This document shows positions 286 to 56,724 of a stretch of DNA of 64,000 bases, piece by piece; position 1 is the first letter of the stretch, and every line of letters starts with the position of its first letter. The notes beneath the pieces are model-generated. The model did not search any database. It saw nothing but the letters and a program-made list of their open reading frames with translations, and was not told the DNA's origin. The stretch comes from an uncultured Gammaproteobacteria bacterium (GTDB taxonomy: Bacteria > Patescibacteriota > Patescibacteriia > SBBC01 > CAIJZX01). The position numbers were made by a program, and so were the translations under genes. The stretch covers positions 3,539 to 67,538 of the forward strand of contig CAYLHT010000004.1 in assembly GCA_964383765.1 (NCBI GenBank), given 5' to 3'.

Positions 286-286
286 A

Positions 287-2159: not shown

Positions 2160-2200
2160 AGGTTAGCTCGTTAGCAATTTAGCTTTTTAGCGGGAGTTTT
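2160..2200 (-). promoter_or_regulatory. GCTAA-repeat motif (minus sense: CCGCTAAAAAGCTAAATTGCTAACGAGCTAACCT) ending 0-3 nt before the start codon
   Basis: The same motif architecture recurs at 40432-40488 and 42983-43010, each immediately 5' of a minus-strand ATG. Confidence 0.3.
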
Positions 2201-2472: not shown

Positions 2473-2480
2473 AACCAGAA

Positions 2481-3920: not shown

Positions 3921-3969
3921 GCGTTTTTTGTCATCAGTATGCTTAGATTATAACATTTTCATTCTCATA

Positions 3970-4055
3970 TGTCATCTCGAACCCGCTGCGGGTGAGAGAT
4001 CTGCCTTGTGGTACTACAAAGTAGATTTCTCGCCCTTCTCGGGCTCGAAATGACA
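3970..4055. repeat. MITE/REP-like imperfect palindromic element, copy 1 (TGTCAT[C/T]TCGA...GAGA[G/A]ATCT...AGATTTCTCGCCC...GGGCTCGAAATGACA)
   Basis: Shares about 30-nt arms with elements at 16188-16267 and 38312-38392. Each arm contains an internal gccc-N-gggc mini-hairpin. Intergenic, 48 nt upstream of the aspS start. Confidence 0.6.
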
Positions 4056-4060
4056 GAAGG

Positions 4061-4645: not shown

Positions 4646-5892
4646 TGGTGAAGAATCAATTGAACAATAAAGATCACGCCGGCGACTGACATCAGCCCCC
4701 AGGCCAGCCAACCGCCGAATTTCACGATCGGTCGAGTCGTGAAGTTGCCGACCACGTCGGCTCGATCGGCTAATCGCAAGATGAACCACAGCGCGATGGG
4801 TGCCAGTAACCCGTTCAATACCCCAGCCGCGATCAGGAAAGCGATCGGCGAAATTCCGGTGGCGGACATAATCGCCCCAATCCAAATCGAAATAATGATC
4901 ACAAAGTAAAACGATGGGGCCTGTTTGAAGTGCTGCGACAGTCCTTCCTTCCATCCAGCGACTTCGGCAGTCGCATAGGCGGCGGAACCGGCCAAGATCG
5001 GCACCGCCAATAAGCCGGTGCCAATGATCCCGATTCCAAATAACCAGAACGTTAAGTTGCCCGCTATCGGTCGCAAGGCTTCAGCCGCTTCTTGAGCAGT
5101 CGCGATGTTGGTGATGCCGGCTTGGTGCAACGTCGCGGCCGTCGTCACAATAATGAAGAACATGATCAGATTCGAAACGATCATGCCGGTAGCGGTGTCG
5201 AGTCGCATCGCTCGGATTAAACGGCTGATGTGCGAAGCTTGACGCGGACCGCGACTTTCATTTTCAACTTCTTCAGAGCTTTGCCAAAAAAATAAATAGG
5301 GTGAAATTGTTGTTCCCAAGATAGCCACAATTATCGCCACCACTCCGGGCTGATGAATCACACTTGGCACCAACGTCCGCCAAGCGACTTCGGCCCAATC
5401 AACTTTAATCACCAGGGCGGCGGCGACATATGTTAGTAATGCAAAGGTCAGCCACTTTAGGACATTCACATACTTGCGGTATGGCACCAGAACTTCCAGT
5501 GAAATCATCAGGCCTCCCAGCAGCGCCACATACAGAATTGTTGGCGCGGGGTGGAGCAGTTTACTGACCGCCGCCATCGCTCCCAAATCAGCACCGATGT
5601 TGATGGTGTTGACGATCAGCAGTAATAAGCTCAACCCGATAGCAACTCGTTTTGAGACATACCGTCGGATCAAGGCCGACAATCCGCGACGCGTCACCAA
5701 GCCTAGTCGGGCCGACATTTCCTGAACCGCCATCATCAGCGGCGTGGTAAAGAGTGCTAGCCAGAGCAACCCATAACCAAATTTCGCACCGGCTTGGGAA
5801 TAAATGATCACGCCCGACGGATCGTCGTCCGAGGCGCCGGTGATCACGCCGGGGCCGATGCTTTTAAAGACGTTGCGCGGTCGGAAGAACAT
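4642..5892 (-). CDS. mntH: Nramp-family divalent metal (Mn2+/Fe2+) transporter
   Basis: N-terminal GPGVITGASDDDPSGVIIYSQAGAKFGY matches the Nramp consensus. 416 aa, polytopic. Confidence 0.75.
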   Translation of the reverse strand: MFFRPRNVFKSIGPGVITGASDDDPSGVIIYSQAGAKFGYGLLWLALFTTPLMMAVQEMSARLGLVTRRGLSALIRRYVSKRVAIGLSLLLLIVNTINIGADLGAMAAVSKLLHPAPTILYVALLGGLMISLEVLVPYRKYVNVLKWLTFALLTYVAAALVIKVDWAEVAWRTLVPSVIHQPGVVAIIVAILGTTISPYLFFWQSSEEVENESRGPRQASHISRLIRAMRLDTATGMIVSNLIMFFIIVTTAATLHQAGITNIATAQEAAEALRPIAGNLTFWLFGIGIIGTGLLAVPILAGSAAYATAEVAGWKEGLSQHFKQAPSFYFVIIISIWIGAIMSATGISPIAFLIAAGVLNGLLAPIALWFILRLADRADVVGNFTTRPIVKFGGWLAWGLMSVAGVIFIVQLILHQ

Positions 5893-5895
5893 ACG

Positions 5896-8388: not shown

Positions 8389-8408
8389 AGTATACCAAAA
8401 AATCTCGC

Positions 8409-8693
8409 TTACGGCTTTGGCTCAATATTCAGAGGAGATGGAGGCGTTTCCAAAAAAATTTTCTTTAATTTGTTTGTGTTGCCGCAGTGCAAACACGCTA
8501 ACTGTCGCGAGGAGTGCTTCGTTGAGTTGAGTGCGCCAAATAATCCAGTTTTGCTTGGCTGAAGCAAGCCTCCCACAACTTGGTTTAGGTTCATGTACCG
8601 ATCTGGATTTACCCCATACTCATCTTCGGCAAAACGAGAATACTGTTGACAATTCGGACATTGATAGTATTTCTTTTTCGGGGTTTCCATCAA
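8409..8693 (-). CDS. Zinc-ribbon hypothetical protein
   Basis: CPNC...CLHC pairs of cysteines. 94 aa. Confidence 0.4.
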   Translation of the reverse strand: MMETPKKKYYQCPNCQQYSRFAEDEYGVNPDRYMNLNQVVGGLLQPSKTGLFGALNSTKHSSRQLACLHCGNTNKLKKIFLETPPSPLNIEPKP

Positions 8694-8716
8694 CTTCGGT
8701 ACTATTCGATTCGGTC

Positions 8717-9139
8717 TTAGCCCACAGCCCTTTTTACCAACGCCACAATTTTCTTCTCATCTGCCGAAGTGAGCTTGATCAGTGCAAAAGCCACCGGCCA
8801 CATCTGCCCAGCATCGAGCTTGGCCGCGTCCTGAAAACCAAGGGTCGAATATCGGTATTTAAATTTAGTCGCGTTTTGGAAAAAACACACAACCTTTCCA
8901 TCTTTGTTGGCATACGCTGGCATACCGTACCACGTTTTCGGGGTGAGCGAAGGTGCAGTTTTCATAATCAGTGCGTGGATGCGCTTCGCCAGACTTCGAT
9001 CAGGTTTCGGCATTTTTGAAATTTTCGCCAAGACCGCGCCTTCGCCTTCAGTATTTCCGGAGCGGCGTTCAGCCGCTTCTTCCCGCATGACCTTGAGCTC
9101 GTCGTCGGAAAAGACTTTGGTGGGTTTGGTGGGTGTCAT
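8717..9139 (-). CDS. DUF1801 (YdhG-like) domain protein
   Basis: The central [21 protein letters not shown] segment resembles the YdhG/DUF1801 family. 140 aa. Confidence 0.4.
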
Positions 9140-9154
9140 GCGAGCACTATTGTG

Positions 9155-9883
9155 TTAGTAGGTTGGACTGGAGGCGCCGTGTGCAAAGATAGAGACGAGA
9201 ATCGAAAGCAGGAGAAAGGCGCCCCCGATGCAGAAGATGACAATCCCCCAGATGCCCCACTGTCGCTGGACCTGTTTAAACTGATCGACGCTCTCCCAGC
9301 GGCCGGCTTTCCAGGCCCACTCGTTACCTTTGATCCCTAGGACAATCCACCAAACGTAACTGAGAACTGGAACGAAGCTTAAGAGAGATAACCAAACGCT
9401 ATGTGAGATTCCCCAAATCCAGGTTAAGCCGGCTGCTCCCCAGTTCCAACCCTCGATCTCAGGCGGCACCACCGACGCATCCCCTTTGCCTGACCGTTCG
9501 TCATAGTGACTATCGGGAGCAATGGTTTTTTTATTCAAGAACACGATGCCGAGAGGGACAAAGACAAAGATGCCGATCACCCCGAGGAGCGCCACGAGCC
9601 CGAGAATAAGATTGATAATTTTTATTACTGTCGTGCCGAGCGTTACCGAATCGCCACTCGGATTGGTCGTCCGCGAAATAAAAATGACAATCGCCCAAAT
9701 GAACAGTGTGGCAACCAGGGTCAGGAACGGCAACAGGATAAAAAATATTCCGAGTTTTTTATTTTTGTTCGAGACGACCATCGCAGTATTCTGCGGGGGT
9801 TTTGGAACTTCTGTAGTAGTTGATTTTTTGGTTGGGCTCATGACAATACGATACGACAGCAACCGATCAGTGTAAAGGGCCAC
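9155..9883 (-). CDS. Hypothetical integral membrane protein (Trp-rich C-terminal half). The true start may be the internal Met at 9841
   Basis: Multiple TM helices and WxW-rich segments. No clear SD at either candidate start. Confidence 0.45.
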   Translation of the reverse strand: MALYTDRLLSYRIVMSPTKKSTTTEVPKPPQNTAMVVSNKNKKLGIFFILLPFLTLVATLFIWAIVIFISRTTNPSGDSVTLGTTVIKIINLILGLVALLGVIGIFVFVPLGIVFLNKKTIAPDSHYDERSGKGDASVVPPEIEGWNWGAAGLTWIWGISHSVWLSLLSFVPVLSYVWWIVLGIKGNEWAWKAGRWESVDQFKQVQRQWGIWGIVIFCIGGAFLLLSILVSIFAHGASSPTY

Positions 9884-9989
9884 TTGCCTTTGATGGATCC
9901 CTCTTTAAGACTTGACTTTCCTATTCTTTCAGGTAAGGTCTCGTCGTTAAGCCGACATCGCGCCGTCCAACCCTTTCAAGGAGTATCCC

Positions 9990-10382
9990 ATGGCCATGGA
10001 TTGGAAGCTACGCTCGTTCTGGAACGTCTATCAGCGACTGGCGCCCTTGATTGGACCGGTGCACATCGTCCGGCTCAACCCAGCCGATGGTCGCCAGCCG
10101 GTCATGCTGTGTCAACGCCTCGGCGTTCGGCTCGTCACCCGCCAGGAATACCTGGATGCCGTCTCGTCCGGTCTGACCCACGCTCCCGGATTTCCGATCG
10201 CCGTTGCTGACCTGTTCTACGACAACTGGGGTGATACGATCCGACATGGCTACTTCGTCAACCCCTACCCGAGCCCTCGTCCCGCCTGGGCCGATGAGTA
10301 CTACAATTGGAGGCAACGTCGCGTCAGACGGCCGTTCCATCAGCTCTGGCGTTTCGCCGTCGCTCGGGTGGCCACTGTGTAG
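9990..10382 (+). CDS. Hypothetical protein in a GC-rich, foreign-looking module
   Basis: Upstream TTGACT-16-TAAGGT promoter-like element and an AGGAG SD 7 nt before the ATG. High-GC codon usage. No known domain. Confidence 0.5.
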   Translation: MAMDWKLRSFWNVYQRLAPLIGPVHIVRLNPADGRQPVMLCQRLGVRLVTRQEYLDAVSSGLTHAPGFPIAVADLFYDNWGDTIRHGYFVNPYPSPRPAWADEYYNWRQRRVRRPFHQLWRFAVARVATV

Positions 10383-10450
10383 CCATCAACCACCGCTTGG
10401 TTTCATGACCTGGCGGTGTTTTATTGCTTGCACCTTTCGTTCCGTTGAAA

Positions 10451-11431
10451 CTAGTCTACGTGGATTCGTTTACGATAATCAGCAATCATGGGAATCCGAC
10501 TGACATACCCTGGATACATATCGACATAATGCCCGCGCAGGTCTTCTGGCTTCTGCCCGCCATACCGACCGGCCAGCCGCTCGTACTCGAAGGCCGGCGT
10601 TGTGAGATCGCCGCCCCGCACCCATTTTTCGCGTAATCCGGTGGATCCAATCGGTCCATGCGCCTCGATCGCTCCGATCCAGATCCGTCCCTCGCCATCG
10701 CGGCAAAAAATGTAGGTAAATTTTTCATCGTTCGAAGGCAGAGCCTCCATCTCGACCGGTCCGTATAAGGTTGTCGACTGACGCCAACGCTGTCCGTGGG
10801 CACGCATATTTGGCATCTGATTGAGATCGGAGAGCTTGACCTTCTCCGGTTCAAGTTTTCCACCCACCCGAAAGTATTCTCCGGTTAACTCAATCGCTCG
10901 ACGGTCGACCTGATTCCGGTAGGTTTGGGATCGATCAATCGCGTGCGCCGTTCCAGCTAAAACTAAGTCTGGATGTTCAAGTTCCAGGGCTGATCGTCCG
11001 CTGATGTCTGCCAACCCAGGCTGCACTAACGTAGGAACAGTGACGCTTTCTTCACTGTACCCTTTCGAGTACCACTCCACCTTTCCATCGTGTGAGGTGT
11101 AGGTAGGTAAATAGCGCCACAGCCCGTGAGAGTTACTTAAGTAATAGCTGCGAGCGACGACGTTCCCTTGGTGTTCAATATACGCCACGACCGCCTTCCG
11201 ACCTTCATGCAATGCGTATGGATCAGACGACAGCCAACGAACGCCCTCTGACTCGGCCAATTGATGGCGCGGTTGTAAGGATAATTCGCGCAACGTGGCC
11301 TGGTCGAGCTCAACCCCATAAAACGGATCGCCGTGGATTTCGGTTCGTTTAAGAGTCTCAGCTTGCTCCGCCAGCGAAAGTTCTTGAACGGCCTCGGGTG
11401 GCAGTGATGGTTGGGGTTCACGTTCGGACAT
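10451..11431 (-). CDS. Hypothetical protein in the same GC-rich module, convergent with the previous gene
   Basis: 326-aa ORF with high GC third positions. No recognised domain. Confidence 0.5.
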   Translation of the reverse strand: MSEREPQPSLPPEAVQELSLAEQAETLKRTEIHGDPFYGVELDQATLRELSLQPRHQLAESEGVRWLSSDPYALHEGRKAVVAYIEHQGNVVARSYYLSNSHGLWRYLPTYTSHDGKVEWYSKGYSEESVTVPTLVQPGLADISGRSALELEHPDLVLAGTAHAIDRSQTYRNQVDRRAIELTGEYFRVGGKLEPEKVKLSDLNQMPNMRAHGQRWRQSTTLYGPVEMEALPSNDEKFTYIFCRDGEGRIWIGAIEAHGPIGSTGLREKWVRGGDLTTPAFEYERLAGRYGGQKPEDLRGHYVDMYPGYVSRIPMIADYRKRIHVD

Positions 11432-11549
11432 GGATCTGAGTATACACCAATTCAGAATACTACGAGCTGATCAAAGCATCAGAATGGATCCTGCCGATAA
11501 CCGTTGACTATTTGAACGCTTTTAGTTATTCTTGCTTACTGAAAAGTAT

Positions 11550-11621
11550 GGGTCCCTAACTCAATGGTAGAGTATCAGCCTTTTAAGCTGAGAGTTCTGG
11601 GTTCGAATCCCAGGGGACCCA
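11550..11621 (+). tRNA. tRNA-Lys (anticodon UUU)
   Basis: Cloverleaf: acceptor GGGTCCC/GGGACCC, D-arm ACTC/GAGT, anticodon stem TCAGC/GCTGA with loop CTTTTAA, T-arm CTGGG-TTCGAAT-CCCAG, discriminator A. CCA is not encoded. Confidence 0.85.
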
Positions 11622-11784
11622 CTAACGTCGGCGAAACCGACATTAATAATTTACTGCGTAGTCCGGGTACGGTCACAAAACTGTGCCCCTGGGACGAGAA
11701 GGGTTGAAGTGAGCTAGTCGAGCCAGGCTCGACGCAGCGAACGATCGGCGAGTTGCCGGTGGCAAGTCGCCGCAACCCAGGACA

Positions 11785-11806
11785 GAGTCCCAGGGGGGGC
11801 CACTAA
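11785..11806 (+). repeat. Partial direct repeat of the tRNA-Lys 3' end (gagtcccagggggggccactaa versus gaatcccaggggacccactaa); possible degenerate att remnant
   Basis: About 19/22 identity to tRNA positions 11600-11626, 165 nt downstream of the tRNA. Several small hairpins lie between them. Confidence 0.25.
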
Positions 11807-11859
11807 TTGAGACAACTTTTTAAGAAATCGCCGAATCTCGGCGAAGGTCTGCATAAACA

Positions 11860-12429
11860 ATGAGTTCGAAAAAGACTCAGGGCCAGGCGCCAGAACGGAG
11901 AATAATAAAGCTAAGAGCTGAGATCGAATCGATTGAGTCTTTCTTTTATGGTGCCAAAGATGGCGATAATGATGATGCTTTCTTCATGTTGAAGATAAAA
12001 CGAGACAATGTTATCAGAGGCATGATATTGGAGTTACATTTATCAATCGAAGATCTACTCAATGGCGTCATCAAAAGCCACATTCTAAGTACAAAGACTG
12101 GGAAAGAGCTGGTTGCTTCTTCAGCGGTTGACGAGTTGCTTGTTGGTGAGAGGGCGATGGGTTTTAAGCAGAAAATAATCTATCTGAAAGCTGCATCATT
12201 GATTCGGCCTCAACTTTTCAATGACTTAGATACATTAAACCGACTAAGGAATAAAGCAGGGCACAATTGGACACTAAATCGCGTTATTAGAAAAAAGATA
12301 AAGCGGAATAAGAGGAAAAGGCCATTGCTTGAATATAAGGGTCGTAATTTGTATCAACATGAAGTCATCAAGGAATTTATTGCCCACTACGGAAGGATTT
12401 ATTATCGCTTGTGGCTGAAATTCGCTTGA
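11860..12429 (+). CDS. HEPN-like domain protein (possible Abi/toxin-type RNase) in an AT-rich segment next to tRNA-Lys
   Basis: 189 aa. C-terminal RLRNKAGHN fits the HEPN Rx4-6H motif. AT-rich codon usage contrasts with the neighbours. Confidence 0.4.
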   Translation: MSSKKTQGQAPERRIIKLRAEIESIESFFYGAKDGDNDDAFFMLKIKRDNVIRGMILELHLSIEDLLNGVIKSHILSTKTGKELVASSAVDELLVGERAMGFKQKIIYLKAASLIRPQLFNDLDTLNRLRNKAGHNWTLNRVIRKKIKRNKRKRPLLEYKGRNLYQHEVIKEFIAHYGRIYYRLWLKFA

Positions 12430-12548
12430 AATCATTCAGCTTGGGTCAATCAGTCCGATACAGTGGTGGAAAGTAGAAGTCATCGGCTTCAAACAACCAA
12501 GTTCGAAGACGGATGCAAGAGGGTTCACCGTTCGGTATATCACGGGCT

Positions 12549-14144
12549 TTACGGCAACCGATAAATCGTCACGTGCGGCCCGCGACGGAGTTTCAGGTCG
12601 AGGGTGCGTAAGACTGACCAATCGCTCGCATAGAGTAATTGATTATTGTTCCAATCAGGATTTGGGTACGGCGGGAAATCAGCTGCCACCTTGGTTTGGG
12701 TGATCACGTTATCATACCCAGCCGCCACGTGTGCATACGACGAATCAGCGCCGTACCGATCAGCGGTGCGTGCGAGTGCACTTCGACTCCCAGCCGCGAT
12801 TAACACATGTTCATTGTGTTGCTGATAATATGTCGGCGGATGGAGACCGAGGGAACTTGTCGTAATGACCGTATAGCGATCACTCAAGACCGGACCATAC
12901 GGTTCGACGACTAGGGTTGAACCAGCCGGAACATTTTCCAGTACCCATTCTCGAGCTTGTTCAGCGGTGTGCGATAATTGAAATCCAACCACCGTCCGCC
13001 CTAAACGAACTGCCGGAGCAATGAAAACGAGTGCGAGCACGACGAATACGAGCGCACGTGGTTTGACTAAGTGCCAGAACCAGACTAACCCAGCGGCCAT
13101 TGGCACTGTCAGTAGTGTCGTGACCGGAATCATCCACCGATCCCAAGACTGGCTGGTCAAACTGATCGTCGCAATGTAGATCAACGCGGCGATGAATGGG
13201 ACGTCAATCCACGCGTGCCATCCTTTTTTTGTACTCCAAAGATATGACCCTAAACCTAGCAGGGCTAATCCAGTCCCAAGCTCCCAATTCAGCGCCTTGA
13301 AATAATTCATTAAATTATGCCACGGGCCAAGATCAGTATGAATGTTGTGATGCTGAATGATTTCTAAAGCTAAGTCGTGTGCGGCTCGCAGGGGTGTGAT
13401 AAATAAAAACGGTGCAGTCACAAAGATCGTAGTGAATGCAACCAAGCCGGCAACTGCCCAACGTCGCCAGATCATCCGGCCATGCCGCCACAGATGAACC
13501 CAAACGACGGGCAATCCGATCAGGAGTAATACCGAAGTAAACTTTTCGGTGATTGCCAGCCCGAAAGCAACCGCACCGACGAACCAGTCTCGACTCGATT
13601 TCGTTCCTTCTAAGATTCGAATCATGACCGAGACCGCGATGAGCAGGAATGTCGTTTGCCAAATGTCTGGCCGGATGACGTGACTGTGGTCAATCAAGTA
13701 GAAATTGAACCCGACCAGCGCGGCGGCGGTTAGACCCACGGCCGGTGAATAGCGCCGGCCGAGCTTGTACACCAATCCGACCGCCACCGTTCCCATCATG
13801 GCTGACAACAATCTGCCGAGCACAATGAACGGCGTTGGGTTTTGACGAAAGGCCTGAGCAGCCGAGAGATGGGTATGGTCAGCAATATTCATTGCTGAAT
13901 TCCAGATCCCCCATACAAAACCCGTGATGTAAATTTGCGGTTGAGCCGGCGCGCCGAACCAACCCGGATTCAATCCCCCGTTCGCAATCCGGAGCGCCGG
14001 GGTGGTGAAGAACGGCTCATCAGTAAATGACAGTCTCGGTAAACCGTACCCAATCTGCCAAATCCGCAAACCAAAACTAACGACAATAATTAGGACTAAC
14101 CACCGAGTGGCAGTTGACCAGCGTTGCGGATTGAATTGGATCAT
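12549..14144 (-). CDS. ArnT/PMT-family (GT39/GT83-like) membrane glycosyltransferase
   Basis: 531 aa, about 12 TM helices. The N-terminal RIWQIGYGLP...DEPFF region is typical of dolichyl-phosphate-mannose/ArnT-like transferases. Confidence 0.55.
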   Translation of the reverse strand: MIQFNPQRWSTATRWLVLIIVVSFGLRIWQIGYGLPRLSFTDEPFFTTPALRIANGGLNPGWFGAPAQPQIYITGFVWGIWNSAMNIADHTHLSAAQAFRQNPTPFIVLGRLLSAMMGTVAVGLVYKLGRRYSPAVGLTAAALVGFNFYLIDHSHVIRPDIWQTTFLLIAVSVMIRILEGTKSSRDWFVGAVAFGLAITEKFTSVLLLIGLPVVWVHLWRHGRMIWRRWAVAGLVAFTTIFVTAPFLFITPLRAAHDLALEIIQHHNIHTDLGPWHNLMNYFKALNWELGTGLALLGLGSYLWSTKKGWHAWIDVPFIAALIYIATISLTSQSWDRWMIPVTTLLTVPMAAGLVWFWHLVKPRALVFVVLALVFIAPAVRLGRTVVGFQLSHTAEQAREWVLENVPAGSTLVVEPYGPVLSDRYTVITTSSLGLHPPTYYQQHNEHVLIAAGSRSALARTADRYGADSSYAHVAAGYDNVITQTKVAADFPPYPNPDWNNNQLLYASDWSVLRTLDLKLRRGPHVTIYRLP

Positions 14145-48254: not shown

Positions 48255-48368
48255 ATCAGTAGTGTATCAGAGACTTGACAAAGATGTCCTTTTCTGTCAA
48301 CGTGGTCCCATTACTGAAACACGCCGAACTGCTGTCTTGTTGTTGTTTGACAACCAAGGAGAGCATCC

Positions 48369-49112
48369 ATGCCCTCGCCTATTCGTGGGTCAACCAAAGA
48401 GTGCTTGGCGCACTACTTTGCTCAGCTGCCGCCGACCAGTCAACGGTCCGGGGTGCGCGCGCGAACGCCGCTGATCCAGTATTGCGGCTGCATCCGGCGG
48501 ACCGTTGCCGATTGGCAAACCGGTCCCCTGCCAGTCGGTGTCTACTTGATCAAGCTTCGCTTTTTTTTGGCGAGCCAAGGATACACCGTCACCGAGTTGG
48601 AGAGTTTGCACCCGTTGGTCCGTTCGCTCGGCTTGATCCTGGCCGAGGGGCGAGCCACGCTCGAGGAATTGCGTCTGGCGCTGGGGTATTCGGACCAGCA
48701 AGAAGTCTTGACGATTCTTCGAGGTAAGCAGAAGCCATACCACCTGGAACAGCGTCTGCAACCACTGGTCGACCGTTACCGAGCGGAACCGAAACCCCCG
48801 GCGACCGGAGTGAAACCGGCCAATGGTGGCGCCGTTCGGGCCACCCCACCCTCAATTCCGGGCGTGAATGGAAGTCAGAAGGGTCTCGTCATCAAGACGC
48901 TCGGCGCCATGATCAAGGCCATGCTACCGCTTGCGAAAGCGGTTGAAGCCAGCCCATTCACCGTCGCCGATCGTGATGCGCTGCATGAGTTGCTGCCCGA
49001 GAACGAGATGTTCCATCTGATCTACTCCCTCAAGCGGCTCACCAGTGAGACCGCTCGACGGGACATCCCACCTGAAGCGCAATCCCACCAAGGAGGAGAC
49101 CGTGGGCGATAA
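48369..49112 (+). CDS. Hypothetical protein, first gene of the high-GC three-gene island
   Basis: AAGGAG SD 7 nt upstream of the ATG. High-GC codon usage. No recognised domain. Overlaps the next gene by 11 nt. Confidence 0.55.
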   Translation: MPSPIRGSTKECLAHYFAQLPPTSQRSGVRARTPLIQYCGCIRRTVADWQTGPLPVGVYLIKLRFFLASQGYTVTELESLHPLVRSLGLILAEGRATLEELRLALGYSDQQEVLTILRGKQKPYHLEQRLQPLVDRYRAEPKPPATGVKPANGGAVRATPPSIPGVNGSQKGLVIKTLGAMIKAMLPLAKAVEASPFTVADRDALHELLPENEMFHLIYSLKRLTSETARRDIPPEAQSHQGGDRGR

Positions 49113-50817
49113 CGAGCTCAAAGGCGTCAGCCAGTTCGGCTTTCACATGGGTAACACCATGGCCAGCATCGCGGCCGAGTATCCGCTCCTGCACGACGTC
49201 ATCAAGGAGTGTGTCCAGAATGCACTGGACGAGGACGCTCGACAGATCACGATCGTCGTCAACCTGCGCACGCGGCGGGCGGCGGTGCGTGACGATGGGA
49301 ACGGCTGCAACCAGTCCAAGTTCGACGCGGCGCTGCTCCAGATCAATCAGTCGTCCAAGCTCAAGAAGCGGTTGAAGCTCGGCCGTTTCGGCAAGGGTTT
49401 GATCTCGCCGTTCGGCAAGGGCAAGTACTTCACGTTCACGTCGTGCCCCAAGGGCCGCAACCGCGACTACATCGAGTGGATGTTCGACACCGATGAGATT
49501 ACGCATCAGGCGCGGACCAACACCATTCCGTTCCGGAAGCGCACCGAGCTGATTCGCGGCCTGGAAGGCATCCCGCCCAAGGGGTGTGCTCTCCGGTGGT
49601 GGTCGACCGAAGTGGCGATCGAAGAGATCACCGAAGACCGGGTCATCAGCAAGGTCAACGGTGAGAGCCTCGTGTTCGACATCCTCAAGACCTTCGGCCT
49701 GGCGATGCGGTTGAAGCAGACCGAGATCCAGATCAAGGTGATCAACGAGGATGGTCGGGACTTCGAGCGGACGTTCACCGCCGACGAGCCCACCGGCCAG
49801 CCTCTGCCGGTGGTGGAGTTGGCGGACAAGGACGCCGGCATGGTCACCTTCCGACTGGCCGTCGCTCGGAAAACCGAGCAGGGTCGGCGCGGCGTGGTCT
49901 CGGTCGGCGAGACCGATGACCTCTACCGTTTCCGATTCTCGAATCTGCGGATGCAGGCGAACGAGTGGTTGCCCAAGGAGGCCTTCGACGCGCTGACGTC
50001 CGGGTTCTTCGAGGGTGAGATCACGGCCACTGGGGTCGAGCTGCAAGCCTCGCGCAAGAGCTTCAAGCCCGGCAACGCGGTGGTCGGGTTCTGCGCGGCG
50101 CTCGAGGAGTGGTACAAGAAGCACGGCGACGCGATCTTCACGGACTTGCGCGAAGAGCGTAAGGACGAGGAGTTCGTGGATTCGGCCCAGCGTTGCTTCA
50201 GTGTGCTGAAGGGTATGCTGGGGCTGCCGCAGTTCCGACACCTGAATGAGGTGTTGGATGCGGCCAAGTTGGGAACCATCGGTCCTGGGCACAGTCGCAA
50301 GGGTAAGCACATCATCGGTCAGCAACCGGTCGGGGCCTACGCTCACAGTTCCGAGCACCGGGCCGCGCCGGGTGAGTCGACGCGGGAGCGGGGGGAGCCG
50401 CGGCATGATCTGCCCAAGCATCACCCCTTCTCAGTCCTGAGCGAGAGTGGGCGCAAGCGGTCGATCGTTTCTGATGACAGTCTCGGCCTGCAGATCGTGG
50501 CCGTCGAACTGGACCAGGAGACGTTCTGGGAATACGACCCAACCTGCGGGCTGCTGAGCATCAACCATCTCTACGGCGCCTGGCGCCAGGTGGAGAAGGA
50601 TGCGCGGATGCGAGATCGTCTGATGCTGTTCGCCGCGGTCCAGGCGCTCTCGCTGCATTCCATGCCGGATGATTACCAGACGACCCAGCGCCTGGTGCTC
50701 AACGCCATGGTCGACCCGTATACGTTCACCCTCGTCAACGCCGAAGCCCTGTCGGGGCGGCGACGCGGACGGAGTGAACCGAAGCGGGCGGTGGCCCAGA
50801 TCAAGCGTAAGGCTTGA
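49102..50817 (+). CDS. GHKL-superfamily ATPase, MORC/Hsp90/MutL-like (HATPase_c_3-type)
   Basis: In-frame GTG start with an AAGGAGG SD 6 nt upstream. Bergerat motifs: N-box ECVQNALDED, G1 DDGNG, G2 GRFGKGLISPFGKG. About 571 aa from the GTG. An intrinsic terminator follows. Confidence 0.65.
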   Translation: MGDNELKGVSQFGFHMGNTMASIAAEYPLLHDVIKECVQNALDEDARQITIVVNLRTRRAAVRDDGNGCNQSKFDAALLQINQSSKLKKRLKLGRFGKGLISPFGKGKYFTFTSCPKGRNRDYIEWMFDTDEITHQARTNTIPFRKRTELIRGLEGIPPKGCALRWWSTEVAIEEITEDRVISKVNGESLVFDILKTFGLAMRLKQTEIQIKVINEDGRDFERTFTADEPTGQPLPVVELADKDAGMVTFRLAVARKTEQGRRGVVSVGETDDLYRFRFSNLRMQANEWLPKEAFDALTSGFFEGEITATGVELQASRKSFKPGNAVVGFCAALEEWYKKHGDAIFTDLREERKDEEFVDSAQRCFSVLKGMLGLPQFRHLNEVLDAAKLGTIGPGHSRKGKHIIGQQPVGAYAHSSEHRAAPGESTRERGEPRHDLPKHHPFSVLSESGRKRSIVSDDSLGLQIVAVELDQETFWEYDPTCGLLSINHLYGAWRQVEKDARMRDRLMLFAAVQALSLHSMPDDYQTTQRLVLNAMVDPYTFTLVNAEALSGRRRGRSEPKRAVAQIKRKA

Positions 50818-50839
50818 TCGCGAGCTACGTTCGAACCTT

Positions 50840-50872
50840 CCCCCGAGGTGTTTCTCGCCTCGGGGGGTTTTT
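50840..50872 (+). terminator. Rho-independent terminator after the GHKL ATPase gene
   Basis: CCCCCGAGG-tgtttctcg-CCTCGGGGG followed by GTTTTTCTTATT. Confidence 0.7.
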
Positions 50873-51251
50873 CTTATTCGGATTCTTGACACGGGCGGTA
50901 AGCTGTGATAAGTCTGTGGCGCAGTCATCGCTCGTTGTCAAACCCTCAACCCACAGGAGGTGGTCTTCAACGACCCGTAAGAAAGCGACACCCCCGGAGG
51001 GACCTGGGATTCGAGCCACCATTGCGGCAGTTCACCCAGAGTACCTGGTCCTCTACCCTGAGGACCGCTCACTCCTCCCGGCCGGCGAGAACATCACCTG
51101 TTCCCGTCGCAACTGGCGAGGACGACGCCCACCGGAGAAAGGGCAGGTCGTCATGCTGTCCGAAATCCTCCGGTACGCTAAAGGCTGGCGAACGCGATCC
51201 GCGCGTCCCGTCACCTTGGCAGACACAAGACCCAAGACGAAAGGGTAACTC

Positions 51252-52073
51252 ATGGCTCCGAAAGCCAAAACCGCCGTGCTGTCGTTCAAGCAGATCACCG
51301 TTCCGTTCTTCGTTCGCCGCGGACTCGACCAGTCCCGGGTGGACTACTTCGTCAACCTGTACCGGTCCGGCGGAGACGTCGAACCGATCCTGGTCAACCG
51401 GAAGGGCGAGCTGATCGAGGGCCGGCATCGCCTCAAGGCCCAGGAGGTGCTCAAGCGCAACAAGGTGACGTGCATGGTCACCGATATCACCGACCGGGCC
51501 AAGATGATCGAGCTCGCGATGCAAGCCAATTCCGGCGGCGCCAAGCCGATGTCGGAAGAGGACTACATCTACAGCGCGACGCATCTGCTCGAGCTGAACC
51601 GGCCCTACCGACAGGTGGTCAAGAGCCTGATCGGCATGGGCTTGCCCGACCAGTACGCCCGTCGGCTGGTGTCGAACGCCAGGGCCAACATCGGCAAGGC
51701 CAAGATGCGGGCGGCCGCCGAGGACGTGGTCGATCGCGATGTGCCGATCGCCGAGGCTGCCAAGAAGCACGGGGTGGAGGTGACCAGCCTGCGGTCGTCG
51801 CTCCGCAGCCGGGGTCGGGCAGCCACCAAGACCGATCGCCCGGCGACGATCAACTCCCTGCTCAGCAAGCGGTTCAAGGCGTTGTCGAGCAGTAATGGTC
51901 GCCTGCTCCAGGGCCTGTTCCGGTCCTACGAGGACGGCGACGTCAGCGAGAAGACGATCAAGGCCGCCCTGACGAAGATGAAGGAGCTGCACGTCAAGCT
52001 GGGCGTGGTCATCGATGACCACGAGAACCGCTTCGCGAAGCTGTCCGGTCGCCGGATGCGGCGGTCGGCCTAG
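51252..52073 (+). CDS. ParB/Srx/DGQHR-fold domain protein (ParB-like N-terminal domain)
   Basis: ILVNRKGELIEGRHRLKAQEV matches the ParB/sulfiredoxin GxxRxxA-type core (EGRHR). 273 aa. A downstream terminator follows. Confidence 0.55.
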   Translation: MAPKAKTAVLSFKQITVPFFVRRGLDQSRVDYFVNLYRSGGDVEPILVNRKGELIEGRHRLKAQEVLKRNKVTCMVTDITDRAKMIELAMQANSGGAKPMSEEDYIYSATHLLELNRPYRQVVKSLIGMGLPDQYARRLVSNARANIGKAKMRAAAEDVVDRDVPIAEAAKKHGVEVTSLRSSLRSRGRAATKTDRPATINSLLSKRFKALSSSNGRLLQGLFRSYEDGDVSEKTIKAALTKMKELHVKLGVVIDDHENRFAKLSGRRMRRSA

Positions 52074-52084
52074 CAGTGCAACAC

Positions 52085-52117
52085 CCCCCCGATGGAAACG
52101 TCGGGGATTTTTATTTT
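52085..52117 (+). terminator. Rho-independent terminator after the ParB-like gene
   Basis: CCCCGA-tggaaacg-TCGGGG followed by ATTTTTATTTT. Confidence 0.6.
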
Positions 52118-52545
52118 ACTGGAGTCAGCGCGACTGCTACCTGACGCACCCAACTATACAAATGCTGACTTGTTGCGCCGAGACCGGTGATTTGAACGTC
52201 AACAATTCCATCATCAGTCGTGCTCGGGACTCCGGCGACTTCAACTGATTCATTCGCCGCTAGAACTTCAAGCCGCTGCGGTCCATCAGTGTTTCGATAA
52301 AATTCTAACACCACAATTTCTCGCCGCTGCCCGCGATGAAGCCAAGAAAACTTTATATCCATTTCGGTCAAGGTATCCGGACCGAGGTTACGAAGTTCGA
52401 CCCGAATGTTCTCACCCCGCTGAATCTTCGACACCACAACATTCGGTCCCTGCTGTTGCTCATTCCGACGTTGATACCGATAGAAGAGCCACTGACCGAT
52501 CAGACCCAGTCCGGCACCGAAGATTAAGAGTCCGAGGTCACGCAT
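52111..52545 (-). CDS. Hypothetical protein with an N-terminal TM helix
   Basis: 144-aa ORF. No known domain. Confidence 0.4.
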   Translation of the reverse strand: MRDLGLLIFGAGLGLIGQWLFYRYQRRNEQQQGPNVVVSKIQRGENIRVELRNLGPDTLTEMDIKFSWLHRGQRREIVVLEFYRNTDGPQRLEVLAANESVEVAGVPSTTDDGIVDVQITGLGATSQHLYSWVRQVAVALTPVK

Positions 52546-52945: not shown

Positions 52946-55900
52946 CTAGCCAAATATCTGCCTAGCATGTTCGACGTCATCAACCCCCACCGACCAATCT
53001 AACCAGACCACCCGTAAATCGTTGACTGGGGCAGGCGGGGTCGTGTCAGGGGAGATAACGGGGTTGTTCACAATCATCACGACGGTCGGGGAAAAGGCGG
53101 AGTTCCCGGCGTTGTCGCGGGCAAGGGCGGTCAGGTCATAGGTACCGTTGGGAACTGAGTTGCTATCCCAGGAGTATACTAACTGTCCCGACCCAAGAAT
53201 TTTTTGTGAGATGGGTTCACCATTCAGGAAAAATTGAGTGTCTTTCACCCCGCTCGTGCCGAAATCGAAGACCGAGATTCTGAAAGAGACGATGCCGCTT
53301 ACTTGCGTTCGGTCGGTCGGAGAGTAAATGGTTGCAATCGGAGGATCGGTATCAATATTCCCGACATTGTTCACGGTTACAGAAATTGCACTCGAGGTAG
53401 TCGTGTTTGTACCATCGGTAGCGGAGGCGGTCAGCGTGTGTGTTCCATTTGAAAATGGGGTCGTATCCCAGTACTGAACATACGGGGAAGCGGTCAAGGT
53501 TGAGCCTAGTGGCTGGCCATCGACGTACACTTGGACCCCGGTCACGAGGCTATTATCGGCGGCGGTCAATCCGACAGCAACGGTGCCGCCGACGGTTGAG
53601 CCATTCGTCGGGGTAGTGATGCTGATCGTCGGCGGCTCTGTGTCGCCATTCGGATCAACCAAAACTCCATCCGAGGATTGGGTTGGGCCAATATTGCCAG
53701 CTGCATCAACGGTTCGAACGGAAACGTAATAGTGCCGACCCGACGTCAGGGTCAAGTTGTTCAAACTCACTCGCGTATCGATCAAGGCTTGAAAGGACTG
53801 GACGTCAGTTCCGCCCGGTGTCGTCCCGATCGCATACTGATACGTCACGCCAGACGCATCATTGACGACTTGCCAGTTCGCGGACAGGTTGGTCAGACTG
53901 TTTTGGACATCAATATCAGCTCCAGTCCCATCGTTCACAAATCCGGTCGCCGGGGGCGAAGTATCATCGACCAACACGCCACTCGACGTCGCCCGCGGAC
54001 CAGCCACCCCATTCAGACCGACCGAACGAACGGAAAAATAGTAGTGCTGACCCTCCACCAGGGCTAAGCCAGTCCGACTGGCATAGATGTTTTTTCCGAC
54101 GTCAGTATACCCCACCACATTCGTCGCGCCGGCCGTCGTACCGATGGCGTATTGGTAATGATCAAGCGTCGCCAGGTCCGGCGAATCACACCAGAAAGCG
54201 GTTAAGACTGATGGCGAATTGGTGGCCGAGTTTTCCGCGCCCCCGACCACGCCATCCAGCACACAATCCGGCGGCAAGGGGCGGCTGCCGGTCGTCAGCG
54301 GACCGGCCGGAGCTGGAGGAGTTGTATCGATAGTGACGCCGTCGGACCAGGTCATATAACTTGCGTTGCCGGCTATATCGATTGCCTGCACTCCAATCAA
54401 ATAGGTCGTCCCGGGTGTCATGGTTAAACCGGTTTGTGAAAACGACGTCTGAAGTCCGTTATCAGTTAGCGGGATGAGGTTGATGCCATCCGGCGTATCA
54501 ACTTCATATTTGTATTTAGCCACCCCAGTGCCATCATCAGTCACCGCATCCCAATTCCCCGCCAGCGAAGTCGTATCAGTTTGAACATCAATATCTTGGC
54601 CGGGTCCATCGTTGACGATGGCCGGGGCCAGCGGCGGGATGGTATCAAAATTCGGCGACGTCACGGTCACGCTCAGGCTGGTCGGCGTGGTTGAGTTGAC
54701 CGTGATGGTTGATCCATTCTTCGGATCAGTCAAGGACTGTCCCGGTTTCAACACCGAATCGACTTGAGTATTCGTCGGTTGTGGCGAAGCATCCAGTAAG
54801 TACGTATAGATGCCATTCGTGTCTAGAATCAGTGCTCCACCGAAGACCGCAGATAACCGGGGATCGCTCGCTGAGAACATCTGCCCATCAGTATTCAGAG
54901 TCACCCCGTCGGCCTGATACGGTTGCCGATATTCAACCGTGGTGTATTCGTTTTGGTCACGCTGAATTCGTAACAGTTTGGTTCCTGCTCCGGCTTGGTC
55001 GACTGGAGTGAGGGTCACGGTCTGACCCGGAGCATGGTTGTTGATGGTGATTGATTGGCCAGGAATCCAACCGGCCAAGTCTTTGCGTTCAGCACTAAAA
55101 TGTCCTTGGTCATAAATCTCATAAAACGGATCATAAATTTGCCCGCCCATCACATCGTAGGGATTTCCGTACTCGACATTCTGGCAAGTTGAATCGTAAA
55201 ACGTTGTGCCGGCCGGACACGATGTCCAACTCGCATGCCCACCGCCAACCAGGGTATGCCCAAGTTCGTGGTTCCAGATGTACTGAATTCGTTGTGAAGT
55301 TTTTGGCAGTTTCACCCAGATCGTATACATCGGAATCGTGCCTTCGTTAGTCGTGTAGTTGATTTGCCACGGCCAAGCCAACCCATCCCAGGCGCAAGAT
55401 TGATCCGTGGTTTCGTCCGGGTAGGCCTTGTACGGAACCAGGATGGCCAGGGTTTGATTTGCCAGTTGGCTGAAGTCGACATCAGGGTCAGCTTGGGTCA
55501 CCAACTGCTGGGCAAATTGCATGTAGGGGCAGGTATTACCCCGCGCCACCGGCACCTCGTACCAATCCCGATTGGTAAACTGCCATTGGTACTGCCCATA
55601 GGAATTGTCCGCGTAATAAGAATTGACGGTATTGGAAATTGTTTGCAGCGTTGAAAAATTTGGGGACCGAACGTCCGTGTTGTTGAAGTCGCCCATCAGC
55701 GTCAAGACTTTGGCGTGGCTTGCGGCTAGTGTTTGGGGCGAAGAAATGACGGATGTGATCGTTGGAGCTGAGGAAGGGCTGGTCTCAGTTTTTACGAGAA
55801 AGGCATCGTCTAGGGTGTAGCCATCAACTTGAAAGGTTGCTCCTGGTGTGATCACTGTCTTCGACCCTTCGACCCCATACACAGTGTATGTTTGATTCCG

Positions 55901-56455
55901 AGTTCGTAATAACAATTCATTCATTCCAGGCTGCTTGTCATCAACCAGATCTCCGTGCAGAGCGTGGATCTGTCCTTGGACTTTGGCTGCCTGCTCAACA
56001 CAGCCTCGACTAACGGCGGCTAATTTTCTCTCCTGGGCCGACCCGAACACCAATTTCTGGGCCGCTACCGGATCGCTCGACATCAAATCCCGCAGCGCTT
56101 GTTTCCGAGCTTGAGCGGCGTGTTGCAGCGCTCCGCGTTTGAATATTTTTCCGGCCCCAGCGGTTTCATAATCCGCGCGAGCCTCGAGAACTTGCTGGTT
56201 GAGGGTTTGTACTTGGCTCTCAGATAACGAGCGGGACGAGTTTGTCGAGCTGACCGATGAACATGTGACTGCGGTCAGATCTGGCACCACCGAAAAGGCC
56301 ATCCCGATAACCCCCAATCCGATGCCGAGAGAAAGCAAAATCACGGCCACTTCGGTTTTCTCGAGAACCGGAACCTGGATGGCTGTTTCGATTGTGGGTC
56401 GTTTCTGTTTGGCCATGATTTTCATTCCACGAGGTGGATTTTTTTCTCCGACCAA
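52946..56455 (-). CDS. Large (1169 aa) secreted/surface protein with an HExxH zinc-metalloprotease motif and tandem Ig/FN3-like repeats; TTG start
   Basis: N-terminal TM/signal anchor. WNHELGHTLVGGGH (HExxH) lies around residue 400. Two repeated about 100-aa modules (VNDGPGQDIDVQTDTTSLAGNW... and VNDGTGADIDVQNSLTNLSANW...). C-terminal tandem ~100-aa Ig-like repeats (TDPPIATIYSPTD..., TEPPTISITTPTN...). Confidence 0.6.
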   Translation of the reverse strand: MVGEKNPPRGMKIMAKQKRPTIETAIQVPVLEKTEVAVILLSLGIGLGVIGMAFSVVPDLTAVTCSSVSSTNSSRSLSESQVQTLNQQVLEARADYETAGAGKIFKRGALQHAAQARKQALRDLMSSDPVAAQKLVFGSAQERKLAAVSRGCVEQAAKVQGQIHALHGDLVDDKQPGMNELLLRTRNQTYTVYGVEGSKTVITPGATFQVDGYTLDDAFLVKTETSPSSAPTITSVISSPQTLAASHAKVLTLMGDFNNTDVRSPNFSTLQTISNTVNSYYADNSYGQYQWQFTNRDWYEVPVARGNTCPYMQFAQQLVTQADPDVDFSQLANQTLAILVPYKAYPDETTDQSCAWDGLAWPWQINYTTNEGTIPMYTIWVKLPKTSQRIQYIWNHELGHTLVGGGHASWTSCPAGTTFYDSTCQNVEYGNPYDVMGGQIYDPFYEIYDQGHFSAERKDLAGWIPGQSITINNHAPGQTVTLTPVDQAGAGTKLLRIQRDQNEYTTVEYRQPYQADGVTLNTDGQMFSASDPRLSAVFGGALILDTNGIYTYLLDASPQPTNTQVDSVLKPGQSLTDPKNGSTITVNSTTPTSLSVTVTSPNFDTIPPLAPAIVNDGPGQDIDVQTDTTSLAGNWDAVTDDGTGVAKYKYEVDTPDGINLIPLTDNGLQTSFSQTGLTMTPGTTYLIGVQAIDIAGNASYMTWSDGVTIDTTPPAPAGPLTTGSRPLPPDCVLDGVVGGAENSATNSPSVLTAFWCDSPDLATLDHYQYAIGTTAGATNVVGYTDVGKNIYASRTGLALVEGQHYYFSVRSVGLNGVAGPRATSSGVLVDDTSPPATGFVNDGTGADIDVQNSLTNLSANWQVVNDASGVTYQYAIGTTPGGTDVQSFQALIDTRVSLNNLTLTSGRHYYVSVRTVDAAGNIGPTQSSDGVLVDPNGDTEPPTISITTPTNGSTVGGTVAVGLTAADNSLVTGVQVYVDGQPLGSTLTASPYVQYWDTTPFSNGTHTLTASATDGTNTTTSSAISVTVNNVGNIDTDPPIATIYSPTDRTQVSGIVSFRISVFDFGTSGVKDTQFFLNGEPISQKILGSGQLVYSWDSNSVPNGTYDLTALARDNAGNSAFSPTVVMIVNNPVISPDTTPPAPVNDLRVVWLDWSVGVDDVEHARQIFG

Positions 56456-56648: not shown

Positions 56649-56724
56649 CGGGGTATGGCGCAGTTGGTAGCGCGCATGCATGGGGTGCATGAGGCCGTGG
56701 GTTCGAGTCCCGCTACCCCGACCA
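56649..56724 (+). tRNA. tRNA-Pro (anticodon GGG), CCA encoded
   Basis: Acceptor CGGGGTA/TACCCCG, D-arm GCGC-AGTTGGTA-GCGC, anticodon stem CATGC/GCATG with loop ATGGGGT, T-arm GTGGG-TTCGAGT-CCCGC, discriminator A, then CCA. Confidence 0.8.

Follow-up and report, generated by a model that had tools for sequence, protein, structure and literature searches.

An orphan ParB-fold protein in a modular gene cassette of the Patescibacteria

INTRODUCTION

KorB (RK2) and Noc are paralogues of ParB that function as CTP-gated clamps, serving silencing or membrane tethering and not partition. KorB works together with a small helix–turn–helix (HTH) co-repressor, KorA. The subject of this study is the gene for a ParB-like protein located at positions 51252–52073 of the forward strand of a 64,000-nt stretch of contig CAYLHT010000004.1 (the window; all positions are those of the whole 64-kb stretch). 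Within the ParB/Srx (ParB-CTPase-fold) superfamily the protein is an orphan and not a partition member, and judged from its predicted structure its closest working analogues are KorB and Noc rather than the partition ParBs. It is encoded in a previously undescribed modular gene cassette of the candidate phyla radiation (CPR; Patescibacteria).

Orphan proteins that adopt a ParB-CTPase fold are encoded outside parAB operons, are often linked to mobile elements and often have a divergent box III, and their nucleotide specificity (CTP, ATP or GTP) is unpredictable from sequence or from AF3 (Kaljevic, Sukhoverkov, Johnson, Hocher & Le, bioRxiv 10.1101/2025.10.10.680097). The protein described here resembles this class, as it lacks a ParA, keeps the GxxRxxA motif and has a box III reduced to A-N-x-G-G. 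The text of that survey mentions no GHKL, HATPase, Hsp90 or Patescibacteria. The survey was built on the Pfam family PF02195, whose gathering threshold is mostly failed by the family described here, which may therefore lie outside it.

The only CPR-linked ParB-like protein that we found in the literature is TasParB of the TIGR-TasA loci (Faure et al., Science 2025, PMC12045711). TIGR-Tas loci occur in phages and CPR bacteria. TasParB is operonic with a partner that is not ParA, has a predicted C-terminal dimerisation element and bears, at the CTPase site, a conserved motif of a distinct kind. Literature searches on ParB-like proteins with GHKL, MORC or Patescibacteria returned nothing describing the cassette; their coverage was limited, so that this is absence of evidence only.

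RESULTS

The ParB-like gene and its family

The ParB-like gene forms the 3′ end of a GC-rich island of ~3.8 kb (about 48300–52100), with a GC content of 0.59–0.69 compared with roughly 0.46–0.55 on both flanks. The island comprises four co-directional and tightly packed open reading frames (ORFs): ORF-A, a gene for a GHKL ATPase, a small ORF and the ParB-like gene. The EF-Tu encoded in the window clusters at ≥90% identity with EF-Tu of Candidatus Kerfeldbacteria/Patescibacteria, and the host is therefore, on this sequence evidence, taken to be a CPR bacterium.

The ORF at 51252–52073 (+) is initiated by an ATG located 3 nt past the stop codon of the small gene. It encodes 273 aa, of which residues 45–81 are PILVNRKGELIEGRHRLKAQEVLKRNKVTCMVTDITD, an exact match to the peptide quoted in the initial annotation of this locus. 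It is confirmed as a real gene rather than a GC-rich chance ORF, because it has hundreds of near-full-length homologues that share invariant residues. When the window protein and one close homologue were used as query in an exhaustive HMMER search, 497 cluster representatives were recovered with E ≤ 1e-3, of which 314 had E ≤ 1e-10; the family size of ~500 is counted as clusters at 50% identity. Among the 150 matches listed the length ranges from 229 to 406 aa (mostly about 255–320 aa), and nearly all are aligned over almost the full length. The members with an identified source are all from Patescibacteria (Zambryskibacteria and Nomurabacteria).

The conserved residues include those of the predicted nucleotide-binding pocket, where the alignment of 60 family sequences points to strong purifying selection. 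V21, R22, G57, R60 and N93 are invariant (60/60), while R58 is found in 59, H59 in 57, D104 in 59 and A63 in 52 of the sequences; A155 and R260 are near-invariant. Box II has the form [DE]GRHRxxA, with DGRHR in 48/60 and EGRHR in the window protein, the GxRHR box of which fits the GxxRxxA P-motif. Box III is A-N-x-G-G, in which the Asn (N93) is invariant and the Arg of ENxxR is replaced by Gly. At position 92, which corresponds to the Glu of ENxxR, 38/60 sequences have Ala and 13/60 an acidic residue. The canonical combination of a box II GERRxRA with a box III ENxxR bearing the hydrolytic Glu is thus not that of this family. The initial annotation had proposed to look for CTP-binding residues, and the pocket residues R22, G57, R60 and N93 are conserved. 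The binding of an NTP is plausible from these residues. Canonical CTP hydrolysis is doubtful, because the position of the ParB hydrolytic Glu is mostly Ala and the Arg of ENxxR is Gly.

The ParB/Srx fold

The assignment to the ParB/Srx fold is weak when based upon a hidden Markov model (HMM) and a single sequence. Pfam ParB_N (PF02195) matches the protein with E = 0.0037 and 17.7 bits, under its gathering score of 26.3, and only one of 39 family members reaches E ≤ 0.01. The NCBIfam models parB_part (16.4 bits, cut-off 58.45) and noc (18.1 bits, cut-off 315) are both far below their cut-offs. The one match in PADLOC is to a methyltransferase model, in its ParB-like N-terminus (MTase_II, 0.011). 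The best single-sequence matches are to ParB-like families of PHROG, at 1e-7. The protein is a member of an uncharacterised family lying mostly below the ParB_N threshold.

The assignment becomes solid when the family profile and the predicted structure are used. The family profile matches PDB sequences of Noc (2e-4), a plant sulfiredoxin (4e-4) and Spo0J (5e-4). Its alignment to Noc places R22 on the box I Arg (QPR), G57-R58-H59-R60-x-x-A63 on GERRxRA and N93 on the box III Asn. The AF2 model, made with 39 homologues in the alignment, has a pLDDT of 90.4. It comprises a ParB N-terminal domain starting at residue ~6, an HTH motif (helices 166–173 and 177–193) and a C-terminal hairpin of two long helices (197–227 and 233–272) that is a probable dimerisation element. 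The HTH is picked up as HTH_psq in 18/39 family members. In a Foldseek search of the PDB the top matches are all of ParB type (pNOB8 ParB-N, B. subtilis ParB-CDP, M. xanthus ParB, Noc and KorB), with E values of 7e-7 to 1e-4 over 185–215 columns that cover the N-terminal domain and the HTH; these are followed by sulfiredoxin (to 2e-3) and free serine kinase. Many phage ParB-like proteins are matched in BFVD at about 1e-7. The initial annotation had proposed a ParB/Srx N-terminal domain with an Arg-rich GxRHR box, and the model, the Foldseek matches and the alignment to boxes I to III bear this out. The architecture predicted is one of a nucleotide-gated dimer that binds DNA, as in KorB or Noc.

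The same annotation had also offered a DGQHR, DndB or DUF262 label, which does not hold. DndB and DUF262 (DGQHR/DGQQR; PF14072/PF03235), known from phosphorothioation and GmrSD-type systems, have the superfamily fold in common with the protein. Pfam gives no match to either family at E ≤ 1; where those proteins have DGQ[HQ]R, this one has [DE]GRHR, and partner genes of the dnd, ssp or HNH kind are absent.

The conserved gene context

In the related loci the recurrent unit of the ParB-like family is, from the gene orders, a triad of ORF-A (241–291 aa), the small gene (81–97 aa) and the ParB-like gene, and the GHKL gene would be a lineage-specific addition to it. The triad is found without a GHKL gene in six independent contexts: L006/7 (Zambryskibacteria), L008–10, L012/13, L016, L017 and L018/19. 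L005 (Nomurabacteria) has the small and ParB-like genes only, and in L011 a solo ParB-like gene lies beside a tRNA-Val. A search for related loci with three family sequences gave a single locus in genomes, a single one in metagenomes and none in viral contigs. L014/15 (1–12800) is a run of about 30 short co-directional ORFs that have no family match except for one PHROG without known function, and is probably a CPR phage or plasmid. The family member of this contig is at 6001–6798, and 400 nt downstream (7193–8020) there is a different ParB_N protein that matches phrog_1033 at 6e-30.

Adjacency of the GHKL and ParB-like genes is kept in one lineage only, comprising the window, L002 and L001. 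L001 contains the single close homologue returned by a word-indexed search (63% identity); there, too, a GHKL gene and a small ORF lie upstream of it. L002, L003 and L004 were reached through homologues of GHKL. L002 is syntenic with the window, in the order ORF-A, GHKL, small gene and ParB_N gene. In L003 and L004 ORF-A and the GHKL gene are followed by a hairpin and then by unrelated genes, with neither the small nor the ParB-like gene. The slot past the GHKL terminator is occupied there by unrelated ORFs of 150 aa (L003, 4246–4698) and 164 aa (L004, 9874–10368) without family assignment.

The tightest partner of the ParB-like gene appears to be the small gene (50916–51248, +). Its homologues of 81–97 aa are the immediate 5′ neighbours of the ParB-like gene, frequently with an overlap, in L005, L006, L008, L012, L016, L017 and L018. 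The homology is well supported (blastp of the window protein against L005, 3e-12; HMM E values of 1e-24 to 1e-34), and the protein has no match in Pfam, NCBIfam, PADLOC, PHROG or PDB sequences. A conserved core of ~73 aa (51030–51248) bears the motifs ITxS, W, PExGxxVxL and GWRA. Where translation starts is uncertain. GTG 50916 is the sole canonical in-frame start (ATG, GTG or TTG) past the GHKL terminator, and falls within a promoter-like stretch; the alternative start of the longest ORF (50814) overlaps the GHKL stop codon and would place the terminator inside the ORF. A conserved N-terminal strand (IRATIAAVH.EY; 50955–51030 in the window and 1890–1956 in L001) lies upstream of any canonical in-frame start that follows the conserved Shine–Dalgarno (SD) sequence AGGAGGTG. 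This arrangement suggests that initiation might be non-canonical, leaderless or otherwise odd.

ORF-A (48369–49112, +; 247 aa) is, as far as can be judged from these loci, the hub partner, since it is the sole component common to the GHKL unit and the ParB-like unit. Homologues are found upstream of the small and ParB-like genes in L006, L008, L012, L016, L017 and L018, and upstream of the GHKL gene in L002, L003 and L004 (blastp of the window protein against L006, 8e-17; HMM E values of 1e-45 to 1e-105 across loci). No relatives of ORF-A are found in Pfam, NCBIfam, PADLOC, PHROG or PDB sequences. It has weak HTH signals (LacI 0.004 and HTH_23 0.019, both for the L006 orthologue; homeobox 0.04), and probably comprises tandem N-terminal HTH motifs and a helical C-terminus.

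The GHKL ATPase

The neighbour of the small and ParB-like genes had been annotated initially as a GHKL ATPase, and it is a genuine one. The gene (49102–50817, +; about 571 aa) probably starts at GTG 49102 behind the SD sequence AAGGAGG, overlapping the stop codon of ORF-A; the longest ORF begins at 49045 (571–590 aa). Pfam HATPase_c_3 matches the protein at 2.8e-12, and the Bergerat-fold motifs are intact, ExxQNxxD, DxGxG and KLGRFGxG being invariant in 13 homologues. The closest PDB sequence match is the N-terminal domain of MutL (1e-7). The AF2 model (pLDDT 77) is most similar in Foldseek to Hsp90/TRAP1/HtpG (2e-12), followed by GyrB and PMS1.

The protein resembles the GHKL proteins of conflict systems (paraMORC of restriction–modification contexts, TmtA of Tiamat and MzaB) in its Bergerat ATPase with intact motifs and in a middle/transducer region like that of MutL, Hsp90 and MORC. 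It differs in context, as the partner genes of those systems are absent and the partner here is ORF-A. The N-terminal matches to TmtA (1.2e-4) and MzaB (1e-3) are weak: they are confined to an ATP-lid region of ~70 residues and score far under the cut-offs of those families.

Terminators, leaders and transcription units

An intrinsic terminator is located directly past the GHKL stop codon (50839–50877, +). It has a 12-bp stem with 9 GC pairs, followed by the T-tract TTTTTCTTAT, and its folding energy is −24.8 kcal/mol (centroid; z = −3.0). Equivalent hairpins are found in L002 (9743–9766), L001 (1773–1796), L003 and L004, that is in all five GHKL loci. A second intrinsic terminator lies past the ParB-like gene at the end of the island (52087–52116, +), with an 8-bp stem followed by ATTTTTATTT. 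At this point the GC content falls from 0.65 to 0.51. Its equivalents are at 10958–10980 in L002 and 3005–3027 in L001.

Between the GHKL terminator and the small gene there is a conserved leader (50884–50965, +) that contains TCTTGACA, a spacing of 17 nt and then cTGATAAG, a promoter-like arrangement, followed by GTTGTCAAC and the SD sequence. The conservation extends over the window, L002 and L001 in a three-way alignment. A simple consensus scan gave no promoter call in this region, which is therefore a putative promoter only. The leader of ORF-A (48270–48368, +) contains CTTGACAA, TGTCAAC ~14 nt later, TTTGACAACC 15 nt before the ATG, and the SD sequence GGAGAG. These elements are invariant in the window, L002 and L003, even though the ORF-A proteins are only 42–48% identical, and would be consistent with a promoter and operator. 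The island would then comprise two transcription units, ORF-A with GHKL and small with ParB-like, that form separate transcripts.

The two leaders have an element in common. Exact TTGACAAC is present in three copies in the 64 kb, two of which are in the island leaders, at 48347–48354 (+) and 50934–50941 (−). Both leader sites are conserved in L001, L002 and L003, overlap sigma70-like −35 hexamers and may be operators. Both units are probably co-regulated through elements of this type. The probable common regulator is ORF-A, because L003 retains the leader elements without a ParB-like gene.

The initial annotation had suggested, as one of two alternatives, that the ParB-like protein works with the GHKL ATPase in a non-canonical module. 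This is disfavoured by the restriction of the pair to one lineage, the 12-bp-stem terminator and promoter-like region between the genes, the six contexts in which the family occurs without GHKL, and the two loci (L003 and L004) with GHKL and ORF-A in the absence of ParB.

Independent exchange of alleles

The syntenic island is a mosaic. Compared with the window, L002 has amino acid identities of 48% for ORF-A, 72% for GHKL, 78% for the small protein and 29% for the ParB-like protein, and its flanking genes are 80% (DEAD), 77% (TGT), 68% (downstream gene) and 51% (hydrolase) identical. In L001 the identities are 30% for GHKL, 78% for the small protein and 63% for the ParB-like protein, ORF-A not being on the contig. 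The sliding nucleotide identity between the window and L002 is 0.65–0.80 over GHKL and 0.64–0.77 over the small gene. It is 0.41–0.55 over the ParB-like gene (51227–52062) and 0.27, heavily gapped, over the terminator (52063–52139), before returning to ~0.7 beyond. The whole stretch of low identity (51227–52140) corresponds to 10120–11000 of L002. The ParB-like allele of L002 is nearer to other subclades of the family (39% identity to P0115) than to that of the window. A ParB-like gene of only 29% identity beside conserved GHKL and small genes indicates that the allele has been replaced in this syntenic relative. Because L002 diverges in the ParB-like gene and L001 in GHKL, these two alleles appear to have been exchanged independently, with the small gene and its leader staying in place.

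Cassette and host differ in GC content in most loci; the cassette is the richer of the two in 10 out of 14, with a difference of up to 13 points (L008: 0.54 compared with 0.42).

ParA and parS

The locus had been described initially as having no ParA nearby and as not being an ordinary partition locus, and both statements stand. The deviant Walker A motif KGGxGK[ST] is absent from all six frames of the 64-kb window, and no ParA/CbiA-type gene lies beside the ParB-like gene in the gene tables of 12 related loci. The N-terminus of the ParB-like protein is MAPKAKTAVLSFKQITVPFFVRR, in which a ParA-activating peptide of the LG(R/K)GL type is not visible on direct reading. Repeat searches of the window gave no repeated palindrome family.

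The further statement that the island contains no parS-like palindrome has to be modified. A perfect 20-bp palindrome, CGTGGTCATCGATGACCACG, lies inside the 3′ end of the ParB-like gene (52004–52023). By our own estimate ~0.03 perfect palindromes having arms of ≥10 bp and a spacer of 0–6 would be expected by chance in 3.9 kb. The 20-bp palindrome is single-copy, absent from L002 and not conserved in L001, so that it is a candidate binding site only. L001 carries the related GTGGTCGACCAC elsewhere in its ParB-like gene, where it may simply encode VVDH. Two imperfect and mutually related 18-bp palindromes with the pattern ACCGCTT..GCGAA are also present, ACCGCTTGCGAAAGCGGT at 48926–48943 in the 3′ part of ORF-A and ACCGCTTCGCGAAGCTGT at 52027–52044 in the 3′ part of the ParB-like gene. 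The island has 30 palindromes compared with 14.8 ± 5.2 in shuffled sequences; the count is inflated by nested versions of a few sites and no enrichment is claimed. With no ParA motif in the 64 kb and no repeated parS, an ordinary ParABS partition locus is rejected.

Comparison with described systems

The likeness to KorB and Noc extends over the N-terminal ParB domain, the HTH and the C-terminal dimerisation element, and KorB (8qa9, 8qa8) and Noc (7nfu, 7ol9) are among the best Foldseek matches. The HTH protein ORF-A, as a conserved partner, recalls KorA, to which it is unrelated in sequence. The differences are that the noc model scores 18 bits against 315, that the HTH is psq-like, that the C-terminal element is a two-helix hairpin, that the ~85-aa partner has no counterpart, and that the Glu of ENxxR is mostly absent. 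Repeated sites like the OB and NBS sites of KorB and Noc were not found. For a KorB-like clamp repressor, the architecture is present in the model, and the TTGACAAC elements in both leaders may be operators.

A TIGR-Tas locus was considered and rejected. There is no dual-repeat/stem array in the window or the related loci, no Rfam match, and no Nop-domain signal in ORF-A. Comparison of ORF-A with TasA (sequence from the supplement of PMC12045711) gave no similarity, with an hhalign probability of 0.04%; TasParB was compared by description only. A known anti-phage system was rejected as well, there being no PADLOC membership.

Surroundings of the island

The island is flanked by housekeeping genes on the opposite strand (TGT, DEAD-box helicase and hydrolase), and further upstream there is a block of ribosomal protein, EF-Tu and EF-G genes. 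No non-coding RNA is matched in the island by Rfam at E ≤ 1. Between its DEAD helicase and hydrolase genes L002 carries two genes that are missing from the window (3469–6195, corresponding to 47367 of the window), one for a 601-aa protein without assignment and the other of the Memo family, which points to local gene flux adjoining the island. Just downstream of the island is a 1169-aa ORF (52946–56455, −) that starts with TTG. Its product has a membrane segment at the N-terminus and numerous repeats of an Ig/fibronectin-like kind, and is probably a surface protein. Beyond this is a tRNA-Pro(GGG) at 56649–56724. The tRNA-Pro closest to the island is ~4.5 kb away.

DISCUSSION

The observation made in the initial annotation is confirmed and its interpretation is partly supported; the conserved partners, the small protein and ORF-A, had not been singled out. 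In the reading that we favour, to which we would give an even chance, the ParB-like protein acts as the DNA-binding switch in an accessory cassette that is shuffled horizontally. The small protein and ORF-A would be the core partners, and the GHKL ATPase an optional module associated with ORF-A, with no role as an obligate partner. The cassette is read as an accessory, conflict-type or regulatory module and not as a chromosome segregation device, because of its GC offset, its varying insertion site, the replacement of the ParB-like allele, the divergent GHKL allele and the presence of one member in a phage-like contig. Mechanistically, the protein would bind an NTP via its N-terminal domain and as a dimer would bind DNA site-specifically. 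The small protein may modulate it, ORF-A may regulate both units of the island, and the cassette as a whole may serve defence or silencing.

A number of observations weigh against this reading. About 12 independent loci were sampled from roughly 500 clusters, and were picked for their long contigs, so that the frequency of the triad is no proper statistic. No palindrome that could act as a loading site is repeated or conserved in L001 or L002, only the single unconserved one being present. The conservation of the small protein (78%) beside ParB-like alleles that are 29% identical is odd for a specific interaction. The GC offset roughly tracks the GC content of the host and could partly reflect a composition rich in Arg, Ala and Gly rather than transfer. 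No mobile element is delimited, as there is no integrase, transposase, tRNA junction or flanking or terminal direct repeat around the island. Finally, the four island proteins fit no model of PADLOC v2 beyond the motif level (MTase_II 0.011, TmtA 1.2e-4), with no match for ORF-A and the small protein.

A broader version, which we put forward tentatively and regard as unlikely, takes ORF-A as the hub of an undescribed modular system centred on the Patescibacteria. ORF-A would recruit either or both of two nucleotide-gated DNA clamps that are unrelated to each other, the ParB/Srx-fold NTPase with its ~85-aa cofactor and the Hsp90/MutL-like GHKL protein, whose alleles would be swapped like cassettes. 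This could constitute a new type of system for DNA surveillance, silencing or action against mobile elements, in bacteria with few known defences.

The ParB-like and GHKL proteins could instead form an obligate machine, in which two nucleotide-gated dimeric clamps (CTP/NTP-ParB and ATP-GHKL) act jointly on DNA and ORF-A and the small protein serve as adaptors. The four genes are indeed co-directional and tightly packed within one GC-distinct island, their order is identical in L002 and L001, and the TTGACAAC-type elements common to both leaders suggest co-regulation. Moreover ORF-A is a partner of both GHKL and the small and ParB-like genes, and the GHKL model is like Hsp90, MutL and GyrB, that is a dimerising ATP clamp. 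We nonetheless consider such a machine unlikely. The combination is found in one lineage only, set against six triads without GHKL and two ORF-A and GHKL loci without ParB; a strong terminator follows GHKL in 5/5 GHKL loci; and the GHKL and ParB-like alleles swap independently, unlike co-adapted partners.

It is equally improbable that the protein is a lineage-specific housekeeping nucleoid or transcription factor of the CPR, a Noc- or KorB-like organiser or global repressor without a role in conflict and with GHKL incidental. The cassettes occur singly on long chromosomal contigs, surrounded by genes for ribosomal proteins, tRNA synthetases and chaperones, which would be consistent with such a factor, as would the strong purifying selection on the pocket residues, and Noc and KorB show that ParB paralogues turn into regulators and organisers. 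Against this, ~500 clusters at 50% identity looks patchy given the diversity of the CPR (a judgement of our own that is not taken from a census of CPR genomes). The genomic location is different in every lineage sampled, an allele has been replaced within a syntenic island, and one family member lies in a phage-like contig.

The order and sizes of the genes would also fit a toxin–antitoxin-like or addiction module, self-stabilising in small genomes, with ORF-A as regulator, the small protein as antitoxin and the ParB/Srx-fold protein as an NTPase or nuclease toxin. The small gene lies directly 5′ of, and is translationally coupled to, a gene for an enzyme-like protein of ~270 aa, and the distribution is patchy, with varying insertion sites and a GC offset. 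Toxins with a ParB fold exist, such as the ATPase toxin ToxB that is neutralised by an immunity protein (bioRxiv 10.64898/2026.05.05.722872), and ParB-like nuclease domains are frequent in conflict systems (PMC3710099). Yet the protein retains the HTH and dimerisation hairpin of DNA-binding ParBs, where ToxB is without DNA binding. The putative antitoxin is 78% conserved beside toxin alleles that are 29% identical, unlike co-evolving toxin–antitoxin pairs, and the solo ParB-like genes of L011 and L014, which have no small gene, would be lethal for a toxin. We therefore regard this as decidedly improbable.

The other branch considered in the initial annotation, that the gene is an orphan left over from a plasmid or phage partition locus and now in decay, is exceedingly improbable: the lack of ParA, the foreign GC of the island and the best single-sequence matches to PHROG ParB-like partition families would suit a remnant, but the ORF is intact with pocket motifs invariant across 60 diverse homologues, its partners are conserved in a recurrent three-gene context indicative of a functioning module, it has a dedicated promoter-like leader and terminator, and direct reading finds no ParA-binding N-terminal peptide of the LG(R/K)GL type.

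Returning to the accessory cassette with a DNA-binding switch, orphan ParB-fold proteins are a large and versatile class of NTP switches, of which very few have a known partner or role. To this class we add a defined family that mostly escapes the ParB_N threshold of Pfam, and a three-gene context that recurs reproducibly and includes two partner proteins without family assignment. The independent swapping of ParB-like and GHKL alleles in one syntenic island provides a natural experiment. If the cassette is a lineage-specific regulator, the family would offer tractable ParB-fold variants with the hydrolytic Glu replaced for studies of nucleotide specificity and of the clamp. If it serves defence or silencing, a further system would become known in the CPR/Patescibacteria, whose immune repertoire is poorly known and whose tiny genomes make accessory genes notable.

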